Source of the DNA: Escherichia phage 4MG
Reading direction: 5' to 3' (one strand)
DNA length: 64,000 nt
Sequence record: NC_022968.1
Each line of letters begins with the position of its first letter. Positions within the stretch are counted from its first letter, which is position 1. A model generated the notes under the pieces. The model was not told the origin of the DNA. It saw nothing but the letters and a program-made list of their open reading frames with translations, and made no database searches. The position numbers were made by a program, and so were the translations under genes. Of the stretch, positions 8,804 through 46,750 are shown in pieces.

Positions 8804-9039
8804 GCAGACTTTCAAAGCTTCACAGACGAAAGAACATGCTGAAAGAAAAGCAGAAAAATATCACCGCAACTTTCCAAGTGTGCCGTGAAGCTATGAAGGC
8901 AAATCTGATAACGCCTTCACAGAGGCAGATTATCCGTGATATACTCCGGCCTGTGCTGCACGACCTGGAGGGCGAGGTTCGTGATGTTTTATGCCACATT
9001 CAAGAAGAACTTGAAAAATTAAATCAGGAGAATACATGA
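8800..9039 (+). CDS. hypothetical protein (79 aa)
   Basis: Track ORF; coupled start. Confidence 0.45.
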   Translation: MSRLSKLHRRKNMLKEKQKNITATFQVCREAMKANLITPSQRQIIRDILRPVLHDLEGEVRDVLCHIQEELEKLNQENT

Positions 9040-9629
9040 TCGACCACGTTACATCAGACACGCATTGGTGGCACACCAATATTCTGGGTTTTCCCTCGTG
9101 TGATAAATTCCGGAAAAACCTGTACGGTCCAAAGGAAGTCCGTGAAAGTCTGTATGCCATGAATGCTGGCATGATTGAAATCTGGAATAAGCACGTCAAA
9201 CCAGATGATGTCGTAGCACACCTCGGTGATTTCGTGATTGCTTACGGACGCTACATGGAGCCTCGCGTTCGTGACATCTTGGAAAAGATCAACGGAAAGA
9301 TCATTCTGGTTGGTGGAAACCATGACAACCGAGATACGAAACGTATCTTCCGTGAGTTTGGTCACGAAGTTGTTGATTATAAAGAGATTAACTTCAGCAC
9401 TGGAAAAGAGAAGGTGCATGTGTGTATGTCTCACTATCCGTTTGCATCGTGGAATAAAGCTCACCACGGGTCAGTTATGCTGCACGGTCATAGCCACGGC
9501 TCCTATACAGCCCCTGGTGGACGTATTCTGGATGTGGGTTGGGATGTACATGGTCGTCCTCTGACGATGCGTGAAGCCGTCCTGATGTGCCTTGAAAAAC
9601 CAATTTACACTGCTGATCACGGAGAATAA
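9036..9629 (+). CDS. calcineurin-like metallophosphoesterase (candidate RNA/DNA-end phosphatase)
   Basis: Track ORF 197 aa; motifs HLGDFV, GGNHDNRD, HGHSHG typical of metallophosphatases. Confidence 0.7.
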   Translation: MIDHVTSDTHWWHTNILGFPSCDKFRKNLYGPKEVRESLYAMNAGMIEIWNKHVKPDDVVAHLGDFVIAYGRYMEPRVRDILEKINGKIILVGGNHDNRDTKRIFREFGHEVVDYKEINFSTGKEKVHVCMSHYPFASWNKAHHGSVMLHGHSHGSYTAPGGRILDVGWDVHGRPLTMREAVLMCLEKPIYTADHGE

Positions 9630-9630
9630 T

Positions 9631-9987
9631 ATGCACAACAAAGTACGTAATTTCTTACCTAAGAAAACATCTAAGTCTTTTTATGCTACGATACACATTG
9701 CTGGGGATCTGGAATCAGCAAGACCATTGCTCCGTCAATGGACTATGCGTGGTGCTTGTGTACAACTAGTCGGGTGTGATTACATCTACACTGGCGGCTC
9801 TGAACGGGGTATGACAGTTCGCATCATGCAGTATCCTCGTTTTGAACGACCGGAGCACGAGATCCTTGAAATGGCGGTTGAACTTGCTAACTTTTTAGCT
9901 CAGGAACTCTGCCAGATCAGTTTCAGCATTGAAACTCCTTACAATACAACGTATTACCAAGCAGAAGGTTACGAAAAGCGATCATGA
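9631..9987 (+). CDS. hypothetical protein (118 aa)
   Basis: ATG after GGAG SD; frame of track ORF. Confidence 0.4.
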   Translation: MHNKVRNFLPKKTSKSFYATIHIAGDLESARPLLRQWTMRGACVQLVGCDYIYTGGSERGMTVRIMQYPRFERPEHEILEMAVELANFLAQELCQISFSIETPYNTTYYQAEGYEKRS

Positions 9988-10187
9988 AAATTCACAACAT
10001 AACCAAGGACAGGATTCATTTCATAATGGATTCAGGGGCTTACGGTTCAATTTCAAAGGTGGATGCCATGAAGTTTCTGTATGCTTCAAATATTCCTCAG
10101 GCAAAGCTTGACTCCCGTTCAGGAGAGTGTATTATTGACTCTATTACGAATACACAAGAACTGTGGGAGATATATCATGAAATTTAA
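9984..10187 (+). CDS. hypothetical protein (67 aa)
   Basis: Track ORF; coupled start. Confidence 0.4.
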   Translation: MKIHNITKDRIHFIMDSGAYGSISKVDAMKFLYASNIPQAKLDSRSGECIIDSITNTQELWEIYHEI

Positions 10188-11097
10188 CGTAGATGATCTG
10201 GTTGCTAAAAAGCTGGTAACCAAAAAGACTTACACCGAAGGCCCGTTCGCGGGTCTGTCTGTACTGAAATATAAGAACAATGTGTTCTGGGATAACCTGT
10301 GGCACACAGATGCGCGTCTGCTTGAGTGCCGTGGCATGGTTGTTGATGCAGAGGACAACGTTGTTATCTGGCCTTTCACGAAGATTTTCAATCGCTTCGA
10401 GAACAACACTGATGTCCCACAGGACAAGTTGGTGTGCGTACCTCGTAAAGTCAATGGCTTTATGGCAGCAATGAGTGTTTACAATGGTGAAGTAATTGTG
10501 TCTACCACAGGAACACTTGATTCTGAGTTTGCACAAATGGCAAAAGATAAGATCACTGGTTCCATGCCTGAAGGGATGCTTGACTATTTCGTGAAGAATG
10601 CTGGACCTTGCACACTTATCTTTGAAATATGTGATGAGAGTGATCCCCACATTGTCGCAGAAGAAGCGGGTGCTTATCTGATTGGTTGCCGGGTCCACTT
10701 AAGTGGTGGTATGCTTCCAGAGTGGGACCTTGATAGAGTTGCAAATCGTTATGGTTGGAAACGTGCTGACTGGGACAACATGATCTTCAGCGATGTTGTT
10801 AAGGCTTCCAAGTCAGTTAATCATGAAGGTTTTGTTGTTCGTGATGTTGACACCAATGAGCTACTGCTGAAAATTAAGTCTCCACATTACCTGGCGAAGA
10901 AGTTCCTGATGCGTGGTAGCCAGAACAAGTGGGACCTGATTTGGGACAACCCGAAAGAAGCCAAAAAACGTATCGACGAAGAGTTCTACGAACTTCTTGA
11001 CTGGCTGCGCTGGGCTTACGAAAAAGATGAGTGGGCGGCTAAGGACTCTCAGTATCGTCGTATGATTATTGAAAAATATTTTGAGGATCGCAAATGA
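10177..11097 (+). CDS. RNA ligase-like nucleotidyltransferase (Rnl2-like)
   Basis: 306 aa; covalent nucleotidyltransferase motifs KVNG (motif I), NHEGFVVRD (motif IV), LKIKSPHY (motif V). Confidence 0.55.
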   Translation: MKFNVDDLVAKKLVTKKTYTEGPFAGLSVLKYKNNVFWDNLWHTDARLLECRGMVVDAEDNVVIWPFTKIFNRFENNTDVPQDKLVCVPRKVNGFMAAMSVYNGEVIVSTTGTLDSEFAQMAKDKITGSMPEGMLDYFVKNAGPCTLIFEICDESDPHIVAEEAGAYLIGCRVHLSGGMLPEWDLDRVANRYGWKRADWDNMIFSDVVKASKSVNHEGFVVRDVDTNELLLKIKSPHYLAKKFLMRGSQNKWDLIWDNPKEAKKRIDEEFYELLDWLRWAYEKDEWAAKDSQYRRMIIEKYFEDRK

Positions 11098-11330
11098 CAC
11101 TCATGTCAATCAAGAACAAACTTGACCGGGCTGTTTCCATAATTACCAGACTTATCATTGGGTTATCTGTGTTTATCTTCTTATTTGCACTGATAATCTT
11201 TGTGAATTGGGTTATCGAAACTCTGGGTGGTAAAGTAATATTCGGTGGAATTCTGCTCATCATTGCGGTGATTGGCTGTTATGGTGTTGGATGTTCCATC
11301 TACCCACACAAAGAAAAGGGTGAAAAATGA
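11094..11330 (+). CDS. small membrane protein (78 aa)
   Basis: Track ORF; two hydrophobic helices. Confidence 0.45.
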   Translation: MTLMSIKNKLDRAVSIITRLIIGLSVFIFLFALIIFVNWVIETLGGKVIFGGILLIIAVIGCYGVGCSIYPHKEKGEK

Positions 11331-11671
11331 TCATCTGGCTTGATGACTTGAGAGACCCAAAAGACTACGGGTATCCTGATGCCTTGTGGTTCAAGACCTC
11401 TCAGAAGTTTATGGATTTTCTTGATAATCGGTCAAAGTTCTATCGTTATGTCACAGAGTGGCATTTTGATAATGACCTAGGTGAAGATTCAGAAAAGGAG
11501 GGCTATGACTGCCTACTGGCCTTGGAAGAGAAGCTTGTGTATGGGAAACTTCCTGTGCATGATGCTAAACTCTATGTCCATACGTCTAACCCTTCTGCGG
11601 CACAAAAGTTCATGCTTGCAAAAGAGAGCTTCTTGAAGTATCGTATCACGATCTTAAGAAACAATTACTGA
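11327..11671 (+). CDS. hypothetical protein (114 aa)
   Basis: Track ORF; coupled start. Confidence 0.45.
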   Translation: MIIWLDDLRDPKDYGYPDALWFKTSQKFMDFLDNRSKFYRYVTEWHFDNDLGEDSEKEGYDCLLALEEKLVYGKLPVHDAKLYVHTSNPSAAQKFMLAKESFLKYRITILRNNY

Positions 11672-11680
11672 GGAGAAGAG

Positions 11681-12088
11681 ATGGAAAAGACTCTGATCAT
11701 CCTGCGTGGTGTGTCTGGTGCTGGTAAGTCTACAGTAGCAGATATGCTGGCAGAGGATTTGTGGCCTGTCTATGAAGCAGATAAATTCCACTACACAGAA
11801 GATGGCGTGTACGACTGGAAACCTGAAAACATGCAGGCTGCACACGCATGGTGTCAGTCAGAGGTCAAAGATATGATGGGGTGGAATATCAGCAGGATCA
11901 TCGTATCTAACACCTCTACCAGTGAAAAAGAACTGAAGCCGTATCTTGATCTCGCAGCGGAGAACGGGTATCGTGTCATCAGCTTGGTGGTAGAAAACCG
12001 TCATGGCAATGACTCCATTCACAGCGTTCCGCAGGAAACCCGCGATGCTCAAGAGCGTCGTCTGCGTAACTCATTGAAATTACAGTAA
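11681..12088 (+). CDS. P-loop kinase, polynucleotide 5'-kinase-like
   Basis: 135 aa; Walker A GVSGAGKST at N-terminus; sits between RNA ligase-like and Sir2-like genes. Confidence 0.55.
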   Translation: MEKTLIILRGVSGAGKSTVADMLAEDLWPVYEADKFHYTEDGVYDWKPENMQAAHAWCQSEVKDMMGWNISRIIVSNTSTSEKELKPYLDLAAENGYRVISLVVENRHGNDSIHSVPQETRDAQERRLRNSLKLQ

Positions 12089-12098
12089 GGGGAAACAA

Positions 12099-12875
12099 TT
12101 GAGGCGTTTAATTGTTATTAGTGGTGCAGGCTTCTCTGCTGAAAGCGGTGTTCGTACATTCCGTACTGATACAGACTCCGGAAAGGCTTTGTGGGATGAG
12201 TACGACCTTGAAGAGGTCTGTAATATCCATGCTTTCCGTGGTAATTTCTATCACAAAACGCACATGTTTTATAACAAGCGTCGTGTAGAACTGCAAACTG
12301 TGCATCCGAATGCTGCACATATGCGTGTTGCTGAGTGGTATAAAAACTACCCAAAACAGGTTGTTAATCTGACGACAAACGTAGATGACCTGCTGGAACG
12401 TGCTGGTGTTCCTAAGGAAGATACTCTGTATATCCACGGATATCTGAAAGAACTTCGGTATAAACTTCACGAAGATTCTGAAGAGCAGTTAGTTGACATT
12501 GGTTACAATGAAGTAGATCCTGATGAATTTCACTGGTGCAAACCAAATGTGGTCTTCTTTGGTGAGGCTGCTCCAGCATATAACGACCTATACTCAACCC
12601 TAGATAGCCTGACATCTGAAGACATGGTGATTGTTGTTGGATGCTCAAACACAGTTATCAACTTCAACTGGGAGCTTTTCCCAGCATCAAGGATGGGTAC
12701 TAAGATTGTTGTGGTTAACCCTAATGTTCGCTACGATGAACAGTTGATGTACGAAGACGCTGGTGTTGTTGTATACCGAACTGGTGCTGTAGATGCGTTC
12801 AGCAACCCTGGTCTCATCAAAATGGTTGAGGATCACCTTGAAGGTAAAACCTCATTGCAGAAGAAGGAGAAATAA
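12099..12875 (+). CDS. Sir2-family (sirtuin-like) NAD+-dependent protein
   Basis: 258 aa, TTG start after AAGGGG SD; GAGFSAESGVRTFR NAD-binding signature, YIHGYL, VVGCSNTV, VVVNPN; no Cys4 zinc module. Confidence 0.7.
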   Translation: MRRLIVISGAGFSAESGVRTFRTDTDSGKALWDEYDLEEVCNIHAFRGNFYHKTHMFYNKRRVELQTVHPNAAHMRVAEWYKNYPKQVVNLTTNVDDLLERAGVPKEDTLYIHGYLKELRYKLHEDSEEQLVDIGYNEVDPDEFHWCKPNVVFFGEAAPAYNDLYSTLDSLTSEDMVIVVGCSNTVINFNWELFPASRMGTKIVVVNPNVRYDEQLMYEDAGVVVYRTGAVDAFSNPGLIKMVEDHLEGKTSLQKKEK

Positions 12876-14179
12876 TGTCAATTAGTTTAGACACACCAAC
12901 ACTATACGCCATTAACAAGGACGGATCGTATCAAGTTTGGAATGTAACCACAGAAGGTGATGAGGTTGTCGTTTCTTTCGGTAAGGAAAATGGAAAGATT
13001 CAACAAAAGCGCACCAAGTGTGAAATGAAAAACATTGGTCGTTCCAATGAAACCACCGCTGAGTTCCAGGCCGTCCTGGAGGCCCGGTCTAAGTGGGAGA
13101 AACAGGTCCGTTTAGGTTATCGTGAGACCAAAGAGGAGTTACAGACGGAAGAGAACTTCTCTCCTATGCTGGCACACGATGCGATCAAACGGTCAAAGTC
13201 AATCGTCTATCCTGCGTATATTCAGCCAAAGCTCGATGGTGTTCGTGCTCTTGTGACGCTTGACAAGGACGGCATCCCGGTGTTTAATAGCCGTGGCAAC
13301 AAAACATACCCAGTACAGGGCGCTTTATTGCAGCAAGTTAAAGAACTTGCAGAGCACACAGGGTTTGACAAGTTCGATGGTGAACTGTATATTCATGGTC
13401 TAAGCCTTCAGAAGATTGTTGCTTTGGCTAAGAAGTGGCGCACCCCTGAACAGATTGAAGCTGAGATCGAGAAAGACTATCAGGCTGATATCAAGCGCTG
13501 TAATAAGGCGGTTGCCGATGGTGAGCATCTCTGGAAAGACTTTGATGGTAATGTGTGGGCTGTTTCCACGTATAAACCAGTAAAAGACGTTGACCGCTTC
13601 AGTGGTTATTCCAGTCTTGACCTAGAGTATCACATCTTTGACATTCCTGTGAATGCACAAAGCCCTTGGTACTCTTATGAGCATGATAAGACCAGACATC
13701 AAGATCTGTTGGTGGTTGCCGATGCTGTTGAATGTGAACTTAACGTACCTATGGTGAAAGTTATCCACGGGATCGTGGTATCTTCTGAAAGGGAAGTTAA
13801 ATGGTCCATCGGTAAATACATGGAGCAGGGATTTGAAGGTTCAATCATCCGAAACTTCAAAGGTGTCTACGAATTTGGTCAACGATCCTCTGATCTCCAA
13901 AAATGGAAACAGTTCCAGGATGGTGAGGCAAAAGTTCTTGATTCTGTAGAGGATAAGAACGGTGAGGGTGTCCTGCTCTGTGAAGAAAGAGATGGTACTC
14001 GATTCAACTGCAAAATGAAAGGCACTCACGCAGAGCGTTCTCAGGCGAAGATGCTATTGTTGGTTGGCGATTTCATCAACTTTACATTCCAGTCGCGTAC
14101 TGATGATGGTGTACCTCAGTTCCCGGTGGGGCAGAGTGTACGTGAACTTGATACATTAACATGGGAGCCAGTATACTAA
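12875..14179 (+). CDS. ATP-dependent DNA ligase
   Basis: 434 aa; motif I KLDGVR, motif IV-like FEGSIIR; size typical of phage ATP ligases. Confidence 0.8.
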   Translation: MSISLDTPTLYAINKDGSYQVWNVTTEGDEVVVSFGKENGKIQQKRTKCEMKNIGRSNETTAEFQAVLEARSKWEKQVRLGYRETKEELQTEENFSPMLAHDAIKRSKSIVYPAYIQPKLDGVRALVTLDKDGIPVFNSRGNKTYPVQGALLQQVKELAEHTGFDKFDGELYIHGLSLQKIVALAKKWRTPEQIEAEIEKDYQADIKRCNKAVADGEHLWKDFDGNVWAVSTYKPVKDVDRFSGYSSLDLEYHIFDIPVNAQSPWYSYEHDKTRHQDLLVVADAVECELNVPMVKVIHGIVVSSEREVKWSIGKYMEQGFEGSIIRNFKGVYEFGQRSSDLQKWKQFQDGEAKVLDSVEDKNGEGVLLCEERDGTRFNCKMKGTHAERSQAKMLLLVGDFINFTFQSRTDDGVPQFPVGQSVRELDTLTWEPVY

Positions 14180-37314: not shown

Positions 37315-38568
37315 ATGAAAGTATATCTGGTAGGTGGCGCAGTACGTGACGGTTTGCTTGGTCGTGAAGTTCATGACCGTGACTACGTGGTTGTGGGTGC
37401 AACGCACGAAGAAATGATCAATAAAGGTTTCACCCAGGTTGGCGCTGCTTTTCCAGTATACCTGCATCCTGAAACCAACGAAGAGTATGCTTTGGCCCGT
37501 ACCGAGCGCAAGACGGGCAACGGTCATACAGACTTCGAAACATTCTTCAGCCCGGACGTGACTTTGGTTGAGGATTTGTCTCGTAGAGACCTGACGATCA
37601 ACGCTATGGCTAAAGATTTGGAAACAGGAGAGATCATCGACCCGTTTGGTGGTCAGTATGATATCGAAAAGAAAATTCTGCGTCATACAACGCTGGCATT
37701 CCTTGACGATCCTCTCCGCATCCTGCGTGTGTACCGATTCAAAGCACAACTGGGCAAAGACTGGGAAATCCATGCCGACACTAAAGCTCTGTGCTTTAAT
37801 AACCGTTATGGGCTGTCCCACATCAGCGGTGAGCGTAAGTGGAAAGAGATGGAGAAAGCCCTTGGTTCTGACAACTTCCGGGCATATGCTGAAGCAATGG
37901 CAGAGCTTGGTGAGTTGCCAGAACTGGATGCCCTGCGTGGAGTAGCACAACCACCAGAACACCACCCGGAAGGTGATGCTTTCGTTCATACACTGCTGTG
38001 TTTGGATGTGGCTGACCTTTACGAGGCTAACCCGTATACCAAATTTGCAGTGCTGTGCCATGACTTCGGTAAGGCGATCACTTTCCGTAAATACGGCAAT
38101 CTGATCGGGCATGAAGAGGCAGGTCTGGAACCAGTACGTACATTGTGTGAGCGTATCCGTGTGCCTAACGACTTCCGTGATGTTGCACTGTACGTAACAG
38201 AGCACCACACCCGTGTTCACTGTATCGCCCCTCGTGGCGGCAATAAGGGTGCAAAGCCACGGTCACTGATGAAACTGTTTGAGGCAGCAGGTAATGTGGC
38301 GAGCGCCAAAACAGCGATGAAGGTTGGTTCTTTGGCAGATGCGTGTTTCTGCGATGCAAAAGGTCGTGGTCCAACAAAAATTGCAGAGCCGTATCCGCAG
38401 GGTTATGTTCTGATGGATGCTTTCCGTTGCATGAAGGCTGTTGACACTAAGGTGATCTCTGCTGAGTGCCTTGCAAAAGGTAAGAGCGGTATCGAGATTG
38501 GTGAAGCTATTCGTGTTGCACGTATTGATGCTATCCGTAGCATCACCCAGCGTGAAATTAAGTGGTAG
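37315..38568 (+). CDS. tRNA nucleotidyltransferase (CCA-adding enzyme) with HD domain
   Basis: 417 aa; class II head MKVYLVGGAVRDGLLGREVHDRDYVVVG, RRDLTINAMA, and HD-type CHDFGK motif. Confidence 0.85.
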   Translation: MKVYLVGGAVRDGLLGREVHDRDYVVVGATHEEMINKGFTQVGAAFPVYLHPETNEEYALARTERKTGNGHTDFETFFSPDVTLVEDLSRRDLTINAMAKDLETGEIIDPFGGQYDIEKKILRHTTLAFLDDPLRILRVYRFKAQLGKDWEIHADTKALCFNNRYGLSHISGERKWKEMEKALGSDNFRAYAEAMAELGELPELDALRGVAQPPEHHPEGDAFVHTLLCLDVADLYEANPYTKFAVLCHDFGKAITFRKYGNLIGHEEAGLEPVRTLCERIRVPNDFRDVALYVTEHHTRVHCIAPRGGNKGAKPRSLMKLFEAAGNVASAKTAMKVGSLADACFCDAKGRGPTKIAEPYPQGYVLMDAFRCMKAVDTKVISAECLAKGKSGIEIGEAIRVARIDAIRSITQREIKW

Positions 38569-39560: not shown

Positions 39561-39775
39561 CTATTGAACTTGTAATTTACCTGTGCATCGGTATACTGTG
39601 CATGGTCGCTGTAATAGCTGCTGATTGGTTCTTGGCAGATAGATTATCTGGACAAGGAATTGGTATTGGGCTGCTGGCTGTTGTGTTCTGGCCTTTATTT
39701 GGGATTTGCCTTATTGGTGGCCTGATAGCTGCCCTGTTTGAAGAAGATTTTGTAATCGCAAGGAGAAAGAGATGA
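39557..39775 (+). CDS. membrane protein (72 aa)
   Basis: Track ORF; two hydrophobic helices. Confidence 0.45.
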   Translation: MTIELVIYLCIGILCMVAVIAADWFLADRLSGQGIGIGLLAVVFWPLFGICLIGGLIAALFEEDFVIARRKR

Positions 39776-40260
39776 AGACACGCATGTACTGCGTAGTAAA
39801 CCAATATATTGCTGGCATCCATGCCGGGATTCAGTCGGCACACGCGATGTCGGAGATGTTCCTTGATTACTCTCAGCGCCGTAACAATGCCGGAAACCTG
39901 TTGTGGGACTGGGCTGATCGCGACAAGACCGTAATCGTGCTCAACGGTGGCTACCAGTCTTCATTGCAGGAACTATGTGAGAAACTGAAGCCTCTGAGCG
40001 GCACTTACCCTTGGGCTTCCTTCTGTGAGGAACAGGATGCCCTGAACGGTGCGATGACCGCAGTTGCTGTTGTGCTGCCTGAGTATATGTACTCACCGCA
40101 ATACGCAGAAGTTGTTGACTTGGTGAAATTACCAGGTTACAATCCACCACAAGTTGCTAATCAGTATCGTGACGAGATGGGAAATACCATCCACAACTAT
40201 ACGCAACCTGAAAAAGACCTGATCACAATGATCAAATCATTCCGACTGAAAGGAGAATAA
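39772..40260 (+). CDS. hypothetical protein (162 aa)
   Basis: Track ORF; no motif recognised. Confidence 0.45.
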   Translation: MKTRMYCVVNQYIAGIHAGIQSAHAMSEMFLDYSQRRNNAGNLLWDWADRDKTVIVLNGGYQSSLQELCEKLKPLSGTYPWASFCEEQDALNGAMTAVAVVLPEYMYSPQYAEVVDLVKLPGYNPPQVANQYRDEMGNTIHNYTQPEKDLITMIKSFRLKGE

Positions 40261-40599: not shown

Positions 40600-40776
40600 A
40601 TGAAAGTTGAAGAACTGAACCCGGAAATCCTTGTAGCCATGATAAATGCAGCGAGCAACATCGCCGCTGCTAAAATCAGGACAATTGGTGACGAATTCAA
40701 CCGTGACCACAACTTTTTTAGCCGGGAATTTGGACGTGTTATCGAAGGCGTAATGAAAGAGGTCAACAAAGAATGA
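40600..40776 (+). CDS. hypothetical small protein (58 aa)
   Basis: Not in track; fills gap with coupled start and ATGA overlap with next gene. Confidence 0.35.
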   Translation: MKVEELNPEILVAMINAASNIAAAKIRTIGDEFNRDHNFFSREFGRVIEGVMKEVNKE

Positions 40777-41114
40777 AAGACGTTCGTGGTGAAACCCTGA
40801 ATGTTGGTGATGAGGTTTATATCTACTGGGGGTATAACCAATTGCGCCCAGCCGTGGTAAAGCAGATCACTAAAAACAAGGCCAAAGTGTTTTGTGACGG
40901 GTCACTCTCCAAATGGAAGTCAGGTGAGTGCATGATCAAGGCAGAAGAACCAACAGGCTACTACCCTGACGAGGTGATCATGCTTCTTGAAGAGATTCGT
41001 CGTATTCGGGATGAGGCTCCGATGAATAAAGAGGGTCTTCCAACAAAACAACTGTGCCAGGGGCTTCTGAATTTTTGGGATATGAAGCGCCCAATGAAAC
41101 TGGTTACCTCTTAA
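40773..41114 (+). CDS. hypothetical protein (113 aa)
   Basis: Track ORF. Confidence 0.45.
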   Translation: MKDVRGETLNVGDEVYIYWGYNQLRPAVVKQITKNKAKVFCDGSLSKWKSGECMIKAEEPTGYYPDEVIMLLEEIRRIRDEAPMNKEGLPTKQLCQGLLNFWDMKRPMKLVTS

Positions 41115-41122
41115 GGAGAGAT

Positions 41123-42196
41123 ATGAAAACTTTTGATATGATGCGATGCTACTCAGGTAGCCTCGCGTATGGGACTAATCTCCCAACATCGGATGTTGAT
41201 ATCCGTGGTCTGTTCTGTGCGGAACCTAAGTTCATCCGTACTCCATTCTTCAATATCAAAGAGCAGACGCTCGCTGATGAAGAGGATGGTAAGATCTACG
41301 AACTGACAAACTTCATGAAGTTGTTTGTGGAGATGAACCCCAACATCATCGAACTGATGTTTGTTGATGAAAAAGATATCATTTCCAGTTCAGACGCTTA
41401 CGCATACCTGCGTACAATGGCACCTGAGCTTATGTCAAGTAAGGTTGCATTTAGCTTCTCTGGTTATGCTATGGCACAGCTTAAGCGTATCCGTGGTCAT
41501 GATAAGTGGATCACCAATCCGCAACCGGAGGAAAAGCCAACGCAAAAGGACTTCTTCCGTTTAGTCCACAACTACAGTGAGCACCCTTTCCTTGCTGGTG
41601 TAATTAAGCACGAACGCTTCATGGAGGCCATGACAAATCTGAACGATATGTGCGTCCTCGTTCCTTATGGCAACGACATCTATGGTGTGATGGAGAACTT
41701 CAGTAGCTCAGGTATGTTCAACGCAGATGGTTCTATTCGTCATGTTGACTACCAGCAACTGTCTGATACAGACAAGCGCCGGAAACCTGTGTTCATTGTA
41801 AAGTATCTGGCAGAAGAGCACAAACAGGCAAAGGAGAAGCACCGTAACTACTGGGCCTGGAAGCAGAACCGTAACGAAGTGCGTCATCAGCTTGAAGTGA
41901 ACTTTGGGTACGACACCAAACACGCCATGCATCTTGTACGTCTGATGCGCATGGCTGAAGAGATCCTGACTGATGGAAAGGTTCTGGTGAAGCGTCCTGA
42001 CGCTCAAGAACTCTTAGATATCCGTGGTGGCAAGTGGACTCTTGACGAGCTTCTTAAATGGGCTGATGAAAAAGATCATTACATTCGCGAAGTTCTGTAC
42101 AAAAAGACAGACCTGCCGAAGTACACCGATCTTGAGTTAGCTTCTCGTGTTCTCATGACAGCGCAGGATATCTGCTGGGCGAGTATGGATGTTTGA
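41123..42196 (+). CDS. polymerase-beta superfamily nucleotidyltransferase of unknown specificity
   Basis: About 357 aa; GSLAYGTNLPTSDVDIRGL fits the G[SG]-x(9-13)-D-h-[DE] nucleotidyltransferase signature; helical C-terminal domain. Confidence 0.6.
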   Translation: MKTFDMMRCYSGSLAYGTNLPTSDVDIRGLFCAEPKFIRTPFFNIKEQTLADEEDGKIYELTNFMKLFVEMNPNIIELMFVDEKDIISSSDAYAYLRTMAPELMSSKVAFSFSGYAMAQLKRIRGHDKWITNPQPEEKPTQKDFFRLVHNYSEHPFLAGVIKHERFMEAMTNLNDMCVLVPYGNDIYGVMENFSSSGMFNADGSIRHVDYQQLSDTDKRRKPVFIVKYLAEEHKQAKEKHRNYWAWKQNRNEVRHQLEVNFGYDTKHAMHLVRLMRMAEEILTDGKVLVKRPDAQELLDIRGGKWTLDELLKWADEKDHYIREVLYKKTDLPKYTDLELASRVLMTAQDICWASMDV

Positions 42197-44016: not shown

Positions 44017-44418
44017 TTGTCTATGAGGGACAGAGGAGATTATTACCGTAAGTACGCCGAGCGGAGGCGAATGATAGACCGTGAGCGTCGTTCTACGCCA
44101 GAAGGAAAGGCAAGGCAGTTACAGATCAGGCTTGAGCGTATCGAGGCTGAGAAACGTGCAACCATGCACAGTGAGTGGGACATCTTTGTAAGAGAAGAGG
44201 CCAACCATCTTTGCAACGTGAGGATGTGTGAAACTGGCATCCGTTGGGAGCCAGACCACATGCTGCCCCTCCGGGCAAAGATTGTCTCCGGCCTTAACTG
44301 TGGTGATAATATCCAGGTAATCCCTGCAAAGATGAATCGTAGCAAAAAGAACCACATGATTTATACCAACCGCTTTGAGTGGATTAAGGATTTGGAGACC
44401 GTATGCAGGATGAAATGA
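44017..44418 (+). CDS. HNH endonuclease
   Basis: 133 aa; HLCNVRMCE ... EPDHMLP ... NCGDNIQVIPAKMNRSKKNH HNH-type motifs. Confidence 0.6.
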   Translation: MSMRDRGDYYRKYAERRRMIDRERRSTPEGKARQLQIRLERIEAEKRATMHSEWDIFVREEANHLCNVRMCETGIRWEPDHMLPLRAKIVSGLNCGDNIQVIPAKMNRSKKNHMIYTNRFEWIKDLETVCRMK

Positions 44419-45543: not shown

Positions 45544-45572
45544 TGACATCATCTTTATTCCTGCCATAATGG
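45544..45572 (+). promoter_or_regulatory. sigma70-like promoter TTGACA-N16-CATAAT
   Basis: Hexamers read directly in divergent gap before 45602 ORF; coordinates +/-2. Confidence 0.45.
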
Positions 45573-45601
45573 TTGAACACAAACCGTTTCAAGGAGAAAC
45601 C

Positions 45602-46750
45602 ATGAAAAGCATTAAACTGAGCATTGCACCAACCTACGTAGCCCATTGGTCATGGTGGGAGGGCGTTCGTGAACTCATTCAGAACGCCATTGACGCTGGT
45701 GACCACGAAGTTGTGTTCATTAAGGACACCATTTCAATTGCATCCTACGGTGGTAAGCTGCCTATCCAATCCCTCCTGATGGGTAAGACCACTAAGGAAG
45801 ATGATGATACCAAGATCGGTAAGTTTGGCGAGGGGATGAAGGTAGGTTTCCTGTGCCTGTTACGTGAAGGTGCAGACATTACCATGTACAACGGTCGAGA
45901 TCTGTGGAAACCAGAGCTTGCGATGGATGATGTGTTCGACGAGAAGGTTCTCTCTGTCAATATCGAGGAGGGGCGTTTCCCTAATCGCTCTGAGGATTGT
46001 GTTACCATCCATATCAAGAATGTTCCTGAACACGCCATACGTGAAATAAAGAACAACTATGCCCCGGAACGTGCTAATCTTGAGGTGGTGTTTGAAGCAG
46101 AGGGCTATGGTAAGGCCTACGCGAAAAAGAACGAGCGTGATTACAAGGATTGCCGTCTATACGTTAATGGCCTGTACGTAACCACCGTTGAGGGTAAGTA
46201 CAAGTTCGATTATGACTTCCCGGCAGACCGATTCACTCTGGATCGTGACCGTAACCAGGCAAGTGAGTTCGAAGTTCGCTGGAATGCAACCCGTCTTCTG
46301 TCACAATCTGACGATGTGCTTATGCTGGCAGACCTGGGTGTTGGTCAGTACGATGACCTTGAGCACTTCGATAGTCAGAACGAGTCAAGCTATTATGTTC
46401 GTGGTTATGAACAGGACACTCTCGAAGAACGGGCGGTATCCATCTTCCGTGAACAAAATGGTTGGAAGGCATTCCCTATCAATGCCAATTGGTCTGATAG
46501 TCGTAAACGATTAGTTACTGAAATGGCGATCAGCCACGGCAAAACTCCGGTGACAGTCAAGAAAGCAGCCTACCAGATGCTGAAACACGAGTTTTCTGTG
46601 CCTGAGGAGATCAACGAAATGGTTGAATTCAAGGCTCTTAGCTACCTTGAGAAATTCCTTGCAAAACACGGTCGAAAACTGTACAGTAAGCCGCGTAAGG
46701 ACCTGGAAAAAACAATCCATATGCTAAAAGTGGCTAAAGGGGAAGCATGA
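45602..46750 (+). CDS. GHKL-type (histidine kinase/MutL/Hsp90-like) ATPase-fold protein
   Basis: About 382 aa; N-box ELIQNAIDAG and G2-box-like GKFGEGMKVGF; the D-x-G-x-G box is not evident. Confidence 0.45.
   Translation: MKSIKLSIAPTYVAHWSWWEGVRELIQNAIDAGDHEVVFIKDTISIASYGGKLPIQSLLMGKTTKEDDDTKIGKFGEGMKVGFLCLLREGADITMYNGRDLWKPELAMDDVFDEKVLSVNIEEGRFPNRSEDCVTIHIKNVPEHAIREIKNNYAPERANLEVVFEAEGYGKAYAKKNERDYKDCRLYVNGLYVTTVEGKYKFDYDFPADRFTLDRDRNQASEFEVRWNATRLLSQSDDVLMLADLGVGQYDDLEHFDSQNESSYYVRGYEQDTLEERAVSIFREQNGWKAFPINANWSDSRKRLVTEMAISHGKTPVTVKKAAYQMLKHEFSVPEEINEMVEFKALSYLEKFLAKHGRKLYSKPRKDLEKTIHMLKVAKGEA

Follow-up and report, generated by a model that had tools for sequence, protein, structure and literature searches.

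The closest described relatives of the enzyme analysed here, a nucleotidyltransferase (NTase) of 357 amino acids (aa) encoded at positions 41123-42196 (+) of a 64,000-nt stretch of Escherichia phage 4MG (NC_022968.1; the whole stretch is called the window below), are the RlaP proteins. Later papers credit the name RlaP to Burroughs and Aravind (2016), who chose it because the family is linked to RNA ligases. Among the NTases of jumbo phages RlaP is the most prevalent; its distribution in these phages mirrors that of RNA ligases, and it was predicted to restore the nucleotides lost from cleaved tRNA ends (e.g. by RloC) before ligation (Iyer et al. 2021, PMC7824862). RlaP activity is known for two Pseudomonas enzymes only, PfRlaP and PaRlaP, which come from RtcB-RlaP-RtcA operons and were assayed in a preprint of December 2025 (Carruthers, Fatma and Huang, 10.64898/2025.12.29.696909). 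Both prefer Mn2+ and add one or two nucleoside monophosphates (NMPs), or the corresponding deoxynucleotides (dNMPs), to the 3'-OH of RNA, not to DNA or protein (E. coli proteins were no substrates). RlaP needs just a 3'-OH, full-length tRNAs being labelled too, and, given a cleaved tRNA, PfRlaP acts on the 5' half in preference to the acceptor end. The products can be sealed by T4 Rnl1, and with this sealing the aminoacylation of a nucleotide-short tRNA was partly rescued. In the PfRlaP crystal structure an NTase domain is joined to a helical C-terminal domain, with a conserved basic cleft. NrdC.11 is listed in the same preprint as the RlaP member of phage T4 (10.64898/2025.12.29.696909).

Judged by its sequence, the 4MG protein is a member of the named RlaP family within the polymerase beta (Pol-beta) superfamily, and probably a template-independent RNA 3'-terminal NTase. 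It matches Pfam PF10127 (RlaP, 'RNA repair pathway DNA polymerase beta family') with 51.4 bits against a gathering cut-off of 23 (E 1.6e-13), a match confined to residues 8-124 (model positions 23-141 of 249); PHROG 388 'nucleotidyltransferase' matches it end to end (6e-78), and PF10127 is carried by all 120 of its top homologs. These matches, together with the homology to T4 NrdC.11 described below, indicate that it is not an unclassified NTase. An earlier note, made from the sequence alone, had called it a second, uncharacterised NTase of the Pol-beta type. 'Second' is correct, the first being the CCA-type NTase encoded by a separate gene (37315-38568); 'uncharacterised' is not, the family being named, predicted to act in RNA repair and assayed in bacterial members. 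The NCBIfam and PADLOC scans of the protein gave nothing meaningful, and PDB sequence searches with the protein alone and with two profiles gave nothing useful.

The plus-strand open reading frame spans 41054-42196, and from the ATG at 41123 it encodes the 357 aa plus the stop. An AAGGAG Shine-Dalgarno sequence, located 4 nt 5' of this ATG, overlaps the TAA stop of the upstream DUF7205 gene (41112-41114), so that 41123-42196 is the right gene model; the N-termini of the orthologs agree with the same start. The longer alternative, beginning with GTG at 41054, was discarded, since it would overlap with the upstream gene and has no ribosome binding site. The gene is under purifying selection, with a ratio of non-synonymous to synonymous substitution rates (dN/dS) of 0.047 against its ortholog in Cronobacter phage GAP31, and has 1412 homologs at E<=1e-3 in a set of 5.8 billion proteins (9698 cluster representatives in a profile search). 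The many homologs, the invariance of the catalytic residues, the dN/dS value and a confident AlphaFold2 model place the NTase signature beyond chance. The gene sits in a long co-directional array, and the promoter and terminator scans around it returned chance level only, so that a separate transcription unit is unsupported.

The N-terminal signature that the earlier note had described as G[SG]-x(9-13)-D-h-[DE], in an open reading frame of about 357 aa, is present: the peptide GSLAYGTNLPTSDVDIRGL, corresponding to residues 12-30 (nt 41156-41212), fits the Pol-beta signature G-S-x10-D-x-D. G12, S13, D24 and D26 are invariant across the aligned homologs (alignments A1 and A2). Residue 55 is D in all 39 sequences of alignment A1 and D or E in the 16 of alignment A2; it aligns with the invariant D102, the third Asp of canonical RlaP, and is presumed to be the third catalytic carboxylate. 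The AlphaFold2 model (mean predicted local distance difference test score, pLDDT, 90.9) divides into three parts: residues 1 to about 140 form an alpha/beta NTase domain, those from about 145 to 228 a beta-rich middle module, and 230-357 a helical C-terminal domain. The nearest solved folds are Pol-beta enzymes, namely ANT(4')/kanamycin nucleotidyltransferase and the NTases of the minimal nucleotidyltransferase (MNT)-HEPN systems, in which a helical KNTase_C/HEPN-like bundle follows, or pairs with, a minimal Pol-beta domain. No cGAS, DncV or OAS structure was among the top matches. The C-terminal part is unlike CCA enzymes, as the note had held, with no match to PolyA_pol (PF01743), PolyA_pol_RNAbd (PF12627) or HD.

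Relatives of 280-330 aa (33-40% identity, all Pfam RlaP members) lack residues ~143-228; the 4MG protein therefore has an insert of about 85 aa. Of the 26 substitutions that separate it from the GAP31 ortholog 17 fall within residues 137-223, making the insert the fastest-evolving part. The C-terminal half is rich in invariant Arg, Lys and His; its invariant residues (W246, R250-N251, R254, G262-Y-D-T-K-H267, H270, R273, R291-P-D293, R301) define the motifs NRNxxR, GYDTKHxxHxxR, RPDA and IRxG of the subfamily. In three relatives of about 700 aa (P0121, P0134, P0140) this second motif is split by an intein (GYD/C...HGN/TKH). Inteins typically lodge in functionally critical sites, and the insertion exactly between GYD and TKH is circumstantial evidence that the GYDTKH motif is functionally central. 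The intein begins with C and ends with HGN, followed by T or C; P0140 and another relative, P0129, have an additional insert C-terminal to the GH(x)K motif.

For the comparison with the assayed enzymes, canonical RlaP paralogs from Myxococcota stood in as proxies for PfRlaP and PaRlaP. Over the N-terminal 121 columns the protein aligns with canonical full-length RlaP, the three acidic residues among them (hhalign probability 98.7%, E 1.9e-16). The C-terminal half gave weak, collinear but non-significant matches (TKHAMHLVRL against VKHLLYAYRV, E 0.16; S.LPK against S.LPE, E 5e-4, probability 31%). Consequently, we treat the 4MG protein as belonging to a distinct 'GYDTKH' subfamily within PF10127, whose C-terminal half is, as judged from these alignments, not demonstrably homologous to that of canonical RlaP. 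Both types share the Pfam family, the homologous N-terminal NTase module with its three acidic residues, judging by the 4MG model the order of an NTase domain followed by a helical domain, and the RNA-repair neighbours (RtcA, RtcB, ligases) found beside the bacterial relatives. They differ in several respects: the 4MG protein has about 135 residues, insert included, between the conserved blocks; the GYDTKH subfamily has C-terminal invariant motifs of its own; its phage copies favour the CCA enzyme as neighbour, not a ligase; and in Myxococcota the two are found side by side as tandem paralogs.

Homology to the 4MG protein extends through both halves of T4 NrdC.11 (NP_049709; hhalign probability 97%, E 9e-11, 265 columns); NrdC.11 has a similar length (336 aa) and the same Pfam RlaP pattern restricted to the N-terminus, and T4, like 4MG, has an RNA-repair system. 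It differs in its identity of only about 24%, in reading GIDWKALSH instead of the strict GYDTKH, and in being located among the nrdC.x/mobD genes, not beside a CCA enzyme. The phage copies in PHROG 388 (GAP31 gp112, EC152, 121Q gp506, RaK2) form an orthologous group with no difference of substance: the 4MG protein is 97% identical to the EC152 'putative nucleotidyltransferase', 93% to GAP31 gp112 and 35-39% to the copies of jumbo phages (121Q, RaK2, GAP32, Serratia BF), with weaker matches in Lak phages and Bacillus phage G. The DNA around the gene shares about 86% identity with Enterobacter phage EC152 and with Cronobacter phage GAP31 (both Vequintavirinae, Seunavirus), and its synteny is the same within the Vequintavirinae; the window belongs to a myovirus of this GAP31/EC152-like kind. 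Given that the family was already named, predicted for phage RNA repair and recently assayed in bacteria, the 4MG protein is one of its more or less ordinary members; noteworthy in the subfamily, though not categorically new, are the insert, the linkage to CCA and PTH2-like genes and a divergent C-terminal domain that holds an intein hotspot.

Cleavage of tRNAs is a widespread antiphage strategy (PrrC, RloC, PARIS, retrons, Cas13, Cas12a3), and the phage counter-measures are under active mapping. We consider it probable, at roughly 0.6, that the 4MG protein is an RlaP-type RNA 3'-terminal nucleotidyltransferase acting in phage tRNA/RNA repair after cleavage by host defences. The analysis establishes its family, its catalytic motif, the purifying selection on it, its fold class and its genomic associations; what it acts on, how many nucleotides it adds, which metal it uses and what role it has are suggested by homology and genomic context, as follows. 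Two divalent metals, probably Mn2+, would be coordinated by D24, D26 and D55. The acceptor would be a broken or trimmed RNA, most likely a tRNA, lying in the cleft that separates the NTase domain from the basic, helical C-terminal domain, and its 3'-OH would receive one or two NMPs from nucleoside triphosphates. The partners of the NTase in the infected cell would be the phosphoesterase, the cREC protein, the P-loop kinase, two ligases (Rnl1 and Rnl2) and the CCA-adding enzyme, which carries an HD domain; once extended, the ends would go either to one of the ligases for sealing or to the CCA enzyme for completion, and the restoration of nuclease-shortened tRNAs would allow phage translation to continue. 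Two points weigh against this reading and keep our confidence at the value given: the assayed enzymes are canonical RlaPs, whose C-terminal half is not demonstrably homologous to that of the 4MG protein; and the tandem paralogy in bacteria argues that the canonical and GYDTKH types are not redundant.

The genes surrounding the NTase gene in the window are listed in Table 1. Its immediate neighbours are the DUF7205 gene and a gene for a 70-aa membrane protein. The genes with a plausible link to RNA repair lie further upstream: the CCA enzyme, a 'hydrolase' and, about 30 kb away, a healing and sealing cluster (Metallophos, Rnl1, cREC, kinase, SIR2). The 'hydrolase' gave a sub-threshold match to Pfam PTH2 (18.4 bits against a cut-off of 23), and small and larger sequence profiles of it were negative against the PDB. 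The PTH2-like assignment came from the fold search alone: for its AlphaFold2 model (pLDDT 91.7) the top 13 Foldseek matches in the PDB are all PTH2/Bit1, with probability 1.00. The window itself yielded no canonical RlaP paralog and no gene for Rnl2, Pnkp, Thg1 or RtcB; the relative GAP31 has Rnl2, further phosphatases and 26 tRNAs besides.

Table 1 Positions of the NTase gene, its sequence elements and the related neighbouring genes in the 64,000-nt window of phage 4MG.
Feature	Position	Strand	Evidence
RlaP-family (PF10127 / PHROG 388) nucleotidyltransferase gene, 357 aa	41123..42196	+	ORF and start; Pfam RlaP 51.4 bits; PHROG 388 6e-78; dN/dS 0.047; AlphaFold2 pLDDT 90.9
Shine-Dalgarno AAGGAG	41113..41118	+	Sequence read
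Pol-beta NTase signature G12-S13...D24-x-D26, with two putative metal-binding carboxylates	41156..41212	+	Invariant in alignments A1 and A2; aligns to the GxH..SDxD block of canonical RlaP
D55, presumed third catalytic carboxylate	41285..41287	+	D in 39/39 (A1), D/E in 16/16 (A2); aligns to invariant D102 of canonical RlaP
Subfamily-specific insert, residues ~143-228, predicted beta-rich, fast-evolving	41549..41806	+	Absent from 280-330 aa relatives; model; substitutions vs GAP31
Invariant C-terminal motif G262-Y-D-T-K-H267, then H270, R273; intein site in some relatives	41906..41923	+	Alignments; inteins in P0121, P0134, P0140
CCA-adding tRNA nucleotidyltransferase, class II, with HD domain, 2.5 kb upstream	37315..38568	+	PolyA_pol, PolyA_pol_RNAbd and HD
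PTH2-fold peptidyl-tRNA-hydrolase-like protein, 162 aa (PHROG 3668 'hydrolase'), 0.9 kb upstream	39772..40260	+	AlphaFold2 model, Foldseek
DUF7205 protein directly upstream, no known function	40773..41114	+	Pfam PF23835 4.9e-39
Calcineurin-like phosphoesterase, candidate for RNA 3'-end healing	9036..9629	+	Pfam Metallophos; PHROG 547
Rnl1-type RNA ligase, ortholog of GAP31_172	10081..11097	+	PHROG 562 5.7e-65
cREC_REC cyclic-phosphate-processing receiver domain protein	11327..11671	+	Pfam PF20274 6.9e-18
AAA_33 P-loop kinase (polynucleotide-kinase-like)	11681..12088	+	Pfam AAA_33; 42% identical to the kinase abutting CCA-RlaP in contig L095
SIR2-family protein inside the healing/sealing cluster	12099..12875	+	Pfam SIR2 2.3e-23
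ATP-dependent ligase	12875..14179	+	

The triad of CCA enzyme, PTH2-like gene and NTase gene was found in several phage lineages; the same order occurs in GAP31, in the Vibrio phages D69 and 495E54-1 (as consecutive genes) and in a contig binned to Spirochaetia. In Vibrio phage D69 the triad is followed by Thg1, Rnl1, Pnkp and a phosphoesterase inside 15 kb, and in Serratia BF a Thg1 gene lies 3 kb upstream of the NTase gene. In the metagenomic contig L095 the homologs of the phosphoesterase, kinase, CCA enzyme and NTase of the window are contiguous, the CCA and RlaP genes overlapping by 4 nt; L097 has the same overlap, with Pnkp 2.6 kb downstream. Both partners, CCA and PTH2-like, invariably precede the NTase gene on the same strand; genes of this group are consecutive or overlap in 495E54-1, L012, L095-L098 and L107. 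These associations were counted in a sample of 80 IMG/VR loci (27 lineages at 70% identity), 57 of which (22 lineages) extend 3 kb or more upstream of the gene; few tblastn probes were used, and the counts are lower bounds. Within 3 kb upstream of the NTase gene, a CCA enzyme was present in at least 18 of the 57 loci (7 of the 22 lineages) and a PTH2-like gene in at least 13 (5 lineages); Rnl1 was near the NTase gene in few loci (at least 2 of the 80). Of 50,697 phage records, 230 have the NTase, 187 the PTH2-like gene and 498 the CCA enzyme, and at genus level the counts of NTase and PTH2-like genes are near-identical. The neighbourhoods in 121Q, Tenacibaculum phage PTm1, Bacillus phage G and contig L093 were uninformative.

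The bacterial relatives were sampled through the GYDTKH motif (80 loci, mostly Myxococcota). The genes adjoining them encode RtcA (6 loci), RtcB (3), a PF09414 RNA ligase (3) and Thg1 (1). A canonical full-length RlaP gene (151 bits) lies directly upstream of the GYDTKH paralog in 22 of these loci, with a median gap of 39 nt, which suggests a division of labour or a heteromer between the two members of the pair. One such tandem is formed by L077:5108-5959 and the long form at L077:6001-7053 (L041-L091 set).

The phage neighbours also suit another kind of repair, which we regard as a distinctly weaker candidate than the mending of anticodon-loop breaks: the NTase would replace nucleotides upstream of CCA (e.g. 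N73) in trimmed tRNA 3' tails and hand the tRNA over to the CCA enzyme. On this reading a ligase would be unneeded, and the PTH2-like enzyme would clear aminoacyl or peptidyl groups from the 3' end. Characterised members of the PTH2 family act on the tRNA 3' end, the PTH2 fold of the neighbour was confirmed by Foldseek, and the CCA enzyme carries an HD domain; these two genes are the tightest and most recurrent phage neighbours of the NTase, ligase adjacency is rare (2 of 80 viral loci), and RlaP, which requires only a 3'-OH, labels full-length tRNAs. A CCA enzyme alone should not be capable of rebuilding tails trimmed to the discriminator base. Immune nucleases with this action exist: Cas12a3 removes 2-4 nt from tRNA tails, as far as the discriminator base (PMC12851939). 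However, this support is contextual, the CCA linkage being found in about a third of the viral lineages; the bacterial GYDTKH relatives adjoin RtcA, RtcB and RNA ligases, which points to the sealing of breaks; with cleaved tRNA, PfRlaP acted on the 5' half in preference to the acceptor end; and non-templated addition would give the correct discriminator base only some of the time. A wider proposal, to which we give only tentative weight, is that the GYDTKH subfamily is functionally unlike canonical RlaP and forms, with the CCA/HD and PTH2-like enzymes, a ligase-independent tRNA tail-repair module. Such a module would mend acceptor ends that tail-cutting immune nucleases such as Cas12a3 or HepT-type toxins have shortened beyond CCA, into the discriminator base: the NTase would supply the lost nucleotide or nucleotides, after which the CCA enzyme would finish the tail. 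If true, this would be the first described counter to tail-trimming immunity, and RlaP enzymes would gain a second, ligase-independent role.

The remaining explanations take the enzyme out of RNA repair. The earlier note had listed a minimal NTase, a cyclic-oligonucleotide synthase-like enzyme interfering with CBASS and a nucleotide-tailing enzyme for RNA or protein as candidates; the NTase assignment and the tailing of RNA agree with the RlaP family, and the other options fare badly. An MNT-like protein nucleotidylyltransferase, AMPylating a host HEPN-type (HepT-like) toxin or another protein as an antitoxin mimic, is improbable: the NTase half weakly resembles MNT antitoxins and the C-terminal bundle HEPN domains (7ae9, 7ae2, 5yep), and there is a marginal NCBIfam match to MntA (E 0.056), but its score is 13.3 bits against a cut-off of 60, no HEPN gene adjoins the NTase gene, the sole Rx4-6H motif (R250...H255) is not conserved, the family is RlaP, and canonical RlaP did not modify E. 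coli proteins. The reading of the C-terminal bundle itself as a HEPN RNase was rejected, because its only Rx4H motif is not conserved. Equally improbable is an offensive role, in which extra nucleotides added to the CCA ends of host tRNAs would block aminoacylation and stop host translation. The chemistry of RlaP in vitro, the addition of nucleotides to RNA 3'-OH ends including those of full-length tRNAs, is formally that of the MenT toxins; against it, Pfam families of the MenT/AbiEii type gave no match, the phage's own tRNAs (26 in the relative GAP31) would also be hit, the gene is co-located with tRNA-restoring CCA and PTH2-like genes instead of toxin-antitoxin partners, and the bacterial homologs are in repair operons. 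The least likely of all is a signalling-nucleotide enzyme, either a CD-NTase/OAS-like cyclase or a HalB-like oligodeoxyadenylate synthase mimicking or jamming CBASS or Hailong: no PADLOC model (the library predates Hailong) and no CD-NTase, SMODS, OAS or Mab-21 Pfam family matched at E<=1, the cGAS, DncV and OAS structures are absent from the top fold matches and no cGAS/DncV-like bilobal fold was found, profile searches against PDB sequences find neither HalB nor CD-NTases, and the genomic context is one of tRNA/RNA repair. Taken by itself, the 4MG gene changes little, being one more copy of a family already predicted for tRNA repair. Its possible importance lies at the level of the subfamily: the distinct C-terminal domain, the bacterial tandem with canonical RlaP and the phage coupling to CCA and PTH2-like genes.

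Other features were observed around these genes. The window has two tRNA genes at 2032-2878. The cluster at 9036-14179 resembles a split Pnkp-type system with an NAD-linked component, and the PTH2-like protein has a C-terminal extension of about 45 residues. Some 5 kb upstream of its overlapping CCA-RlaP pair, a TARA Oceans phage contig has a gene (L097:2800-3138 and L098:1274-1612) of the Acb2/Tad1-hairpin family, an anti-CBASS/Thoeris sponge fold, so that the repair genes of L097/L098 are in a counter-defence-rich early region. Downstream of the NTase gene, 44017-44418 (+) encodes an EndoVII/HNH-like small nuclease (PHROG 1035), and 45569-46750 (+) a 393-aa protein (PHROG 6077) with a faint, sub-threshold Sacsin-domain match. 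The sign of the GC skew flips at about 8 kb and about 54 kb, where the gene blocks switch from the minus to the plus strand and back, and the GC content falls to 0.41 at 54-56 kb.

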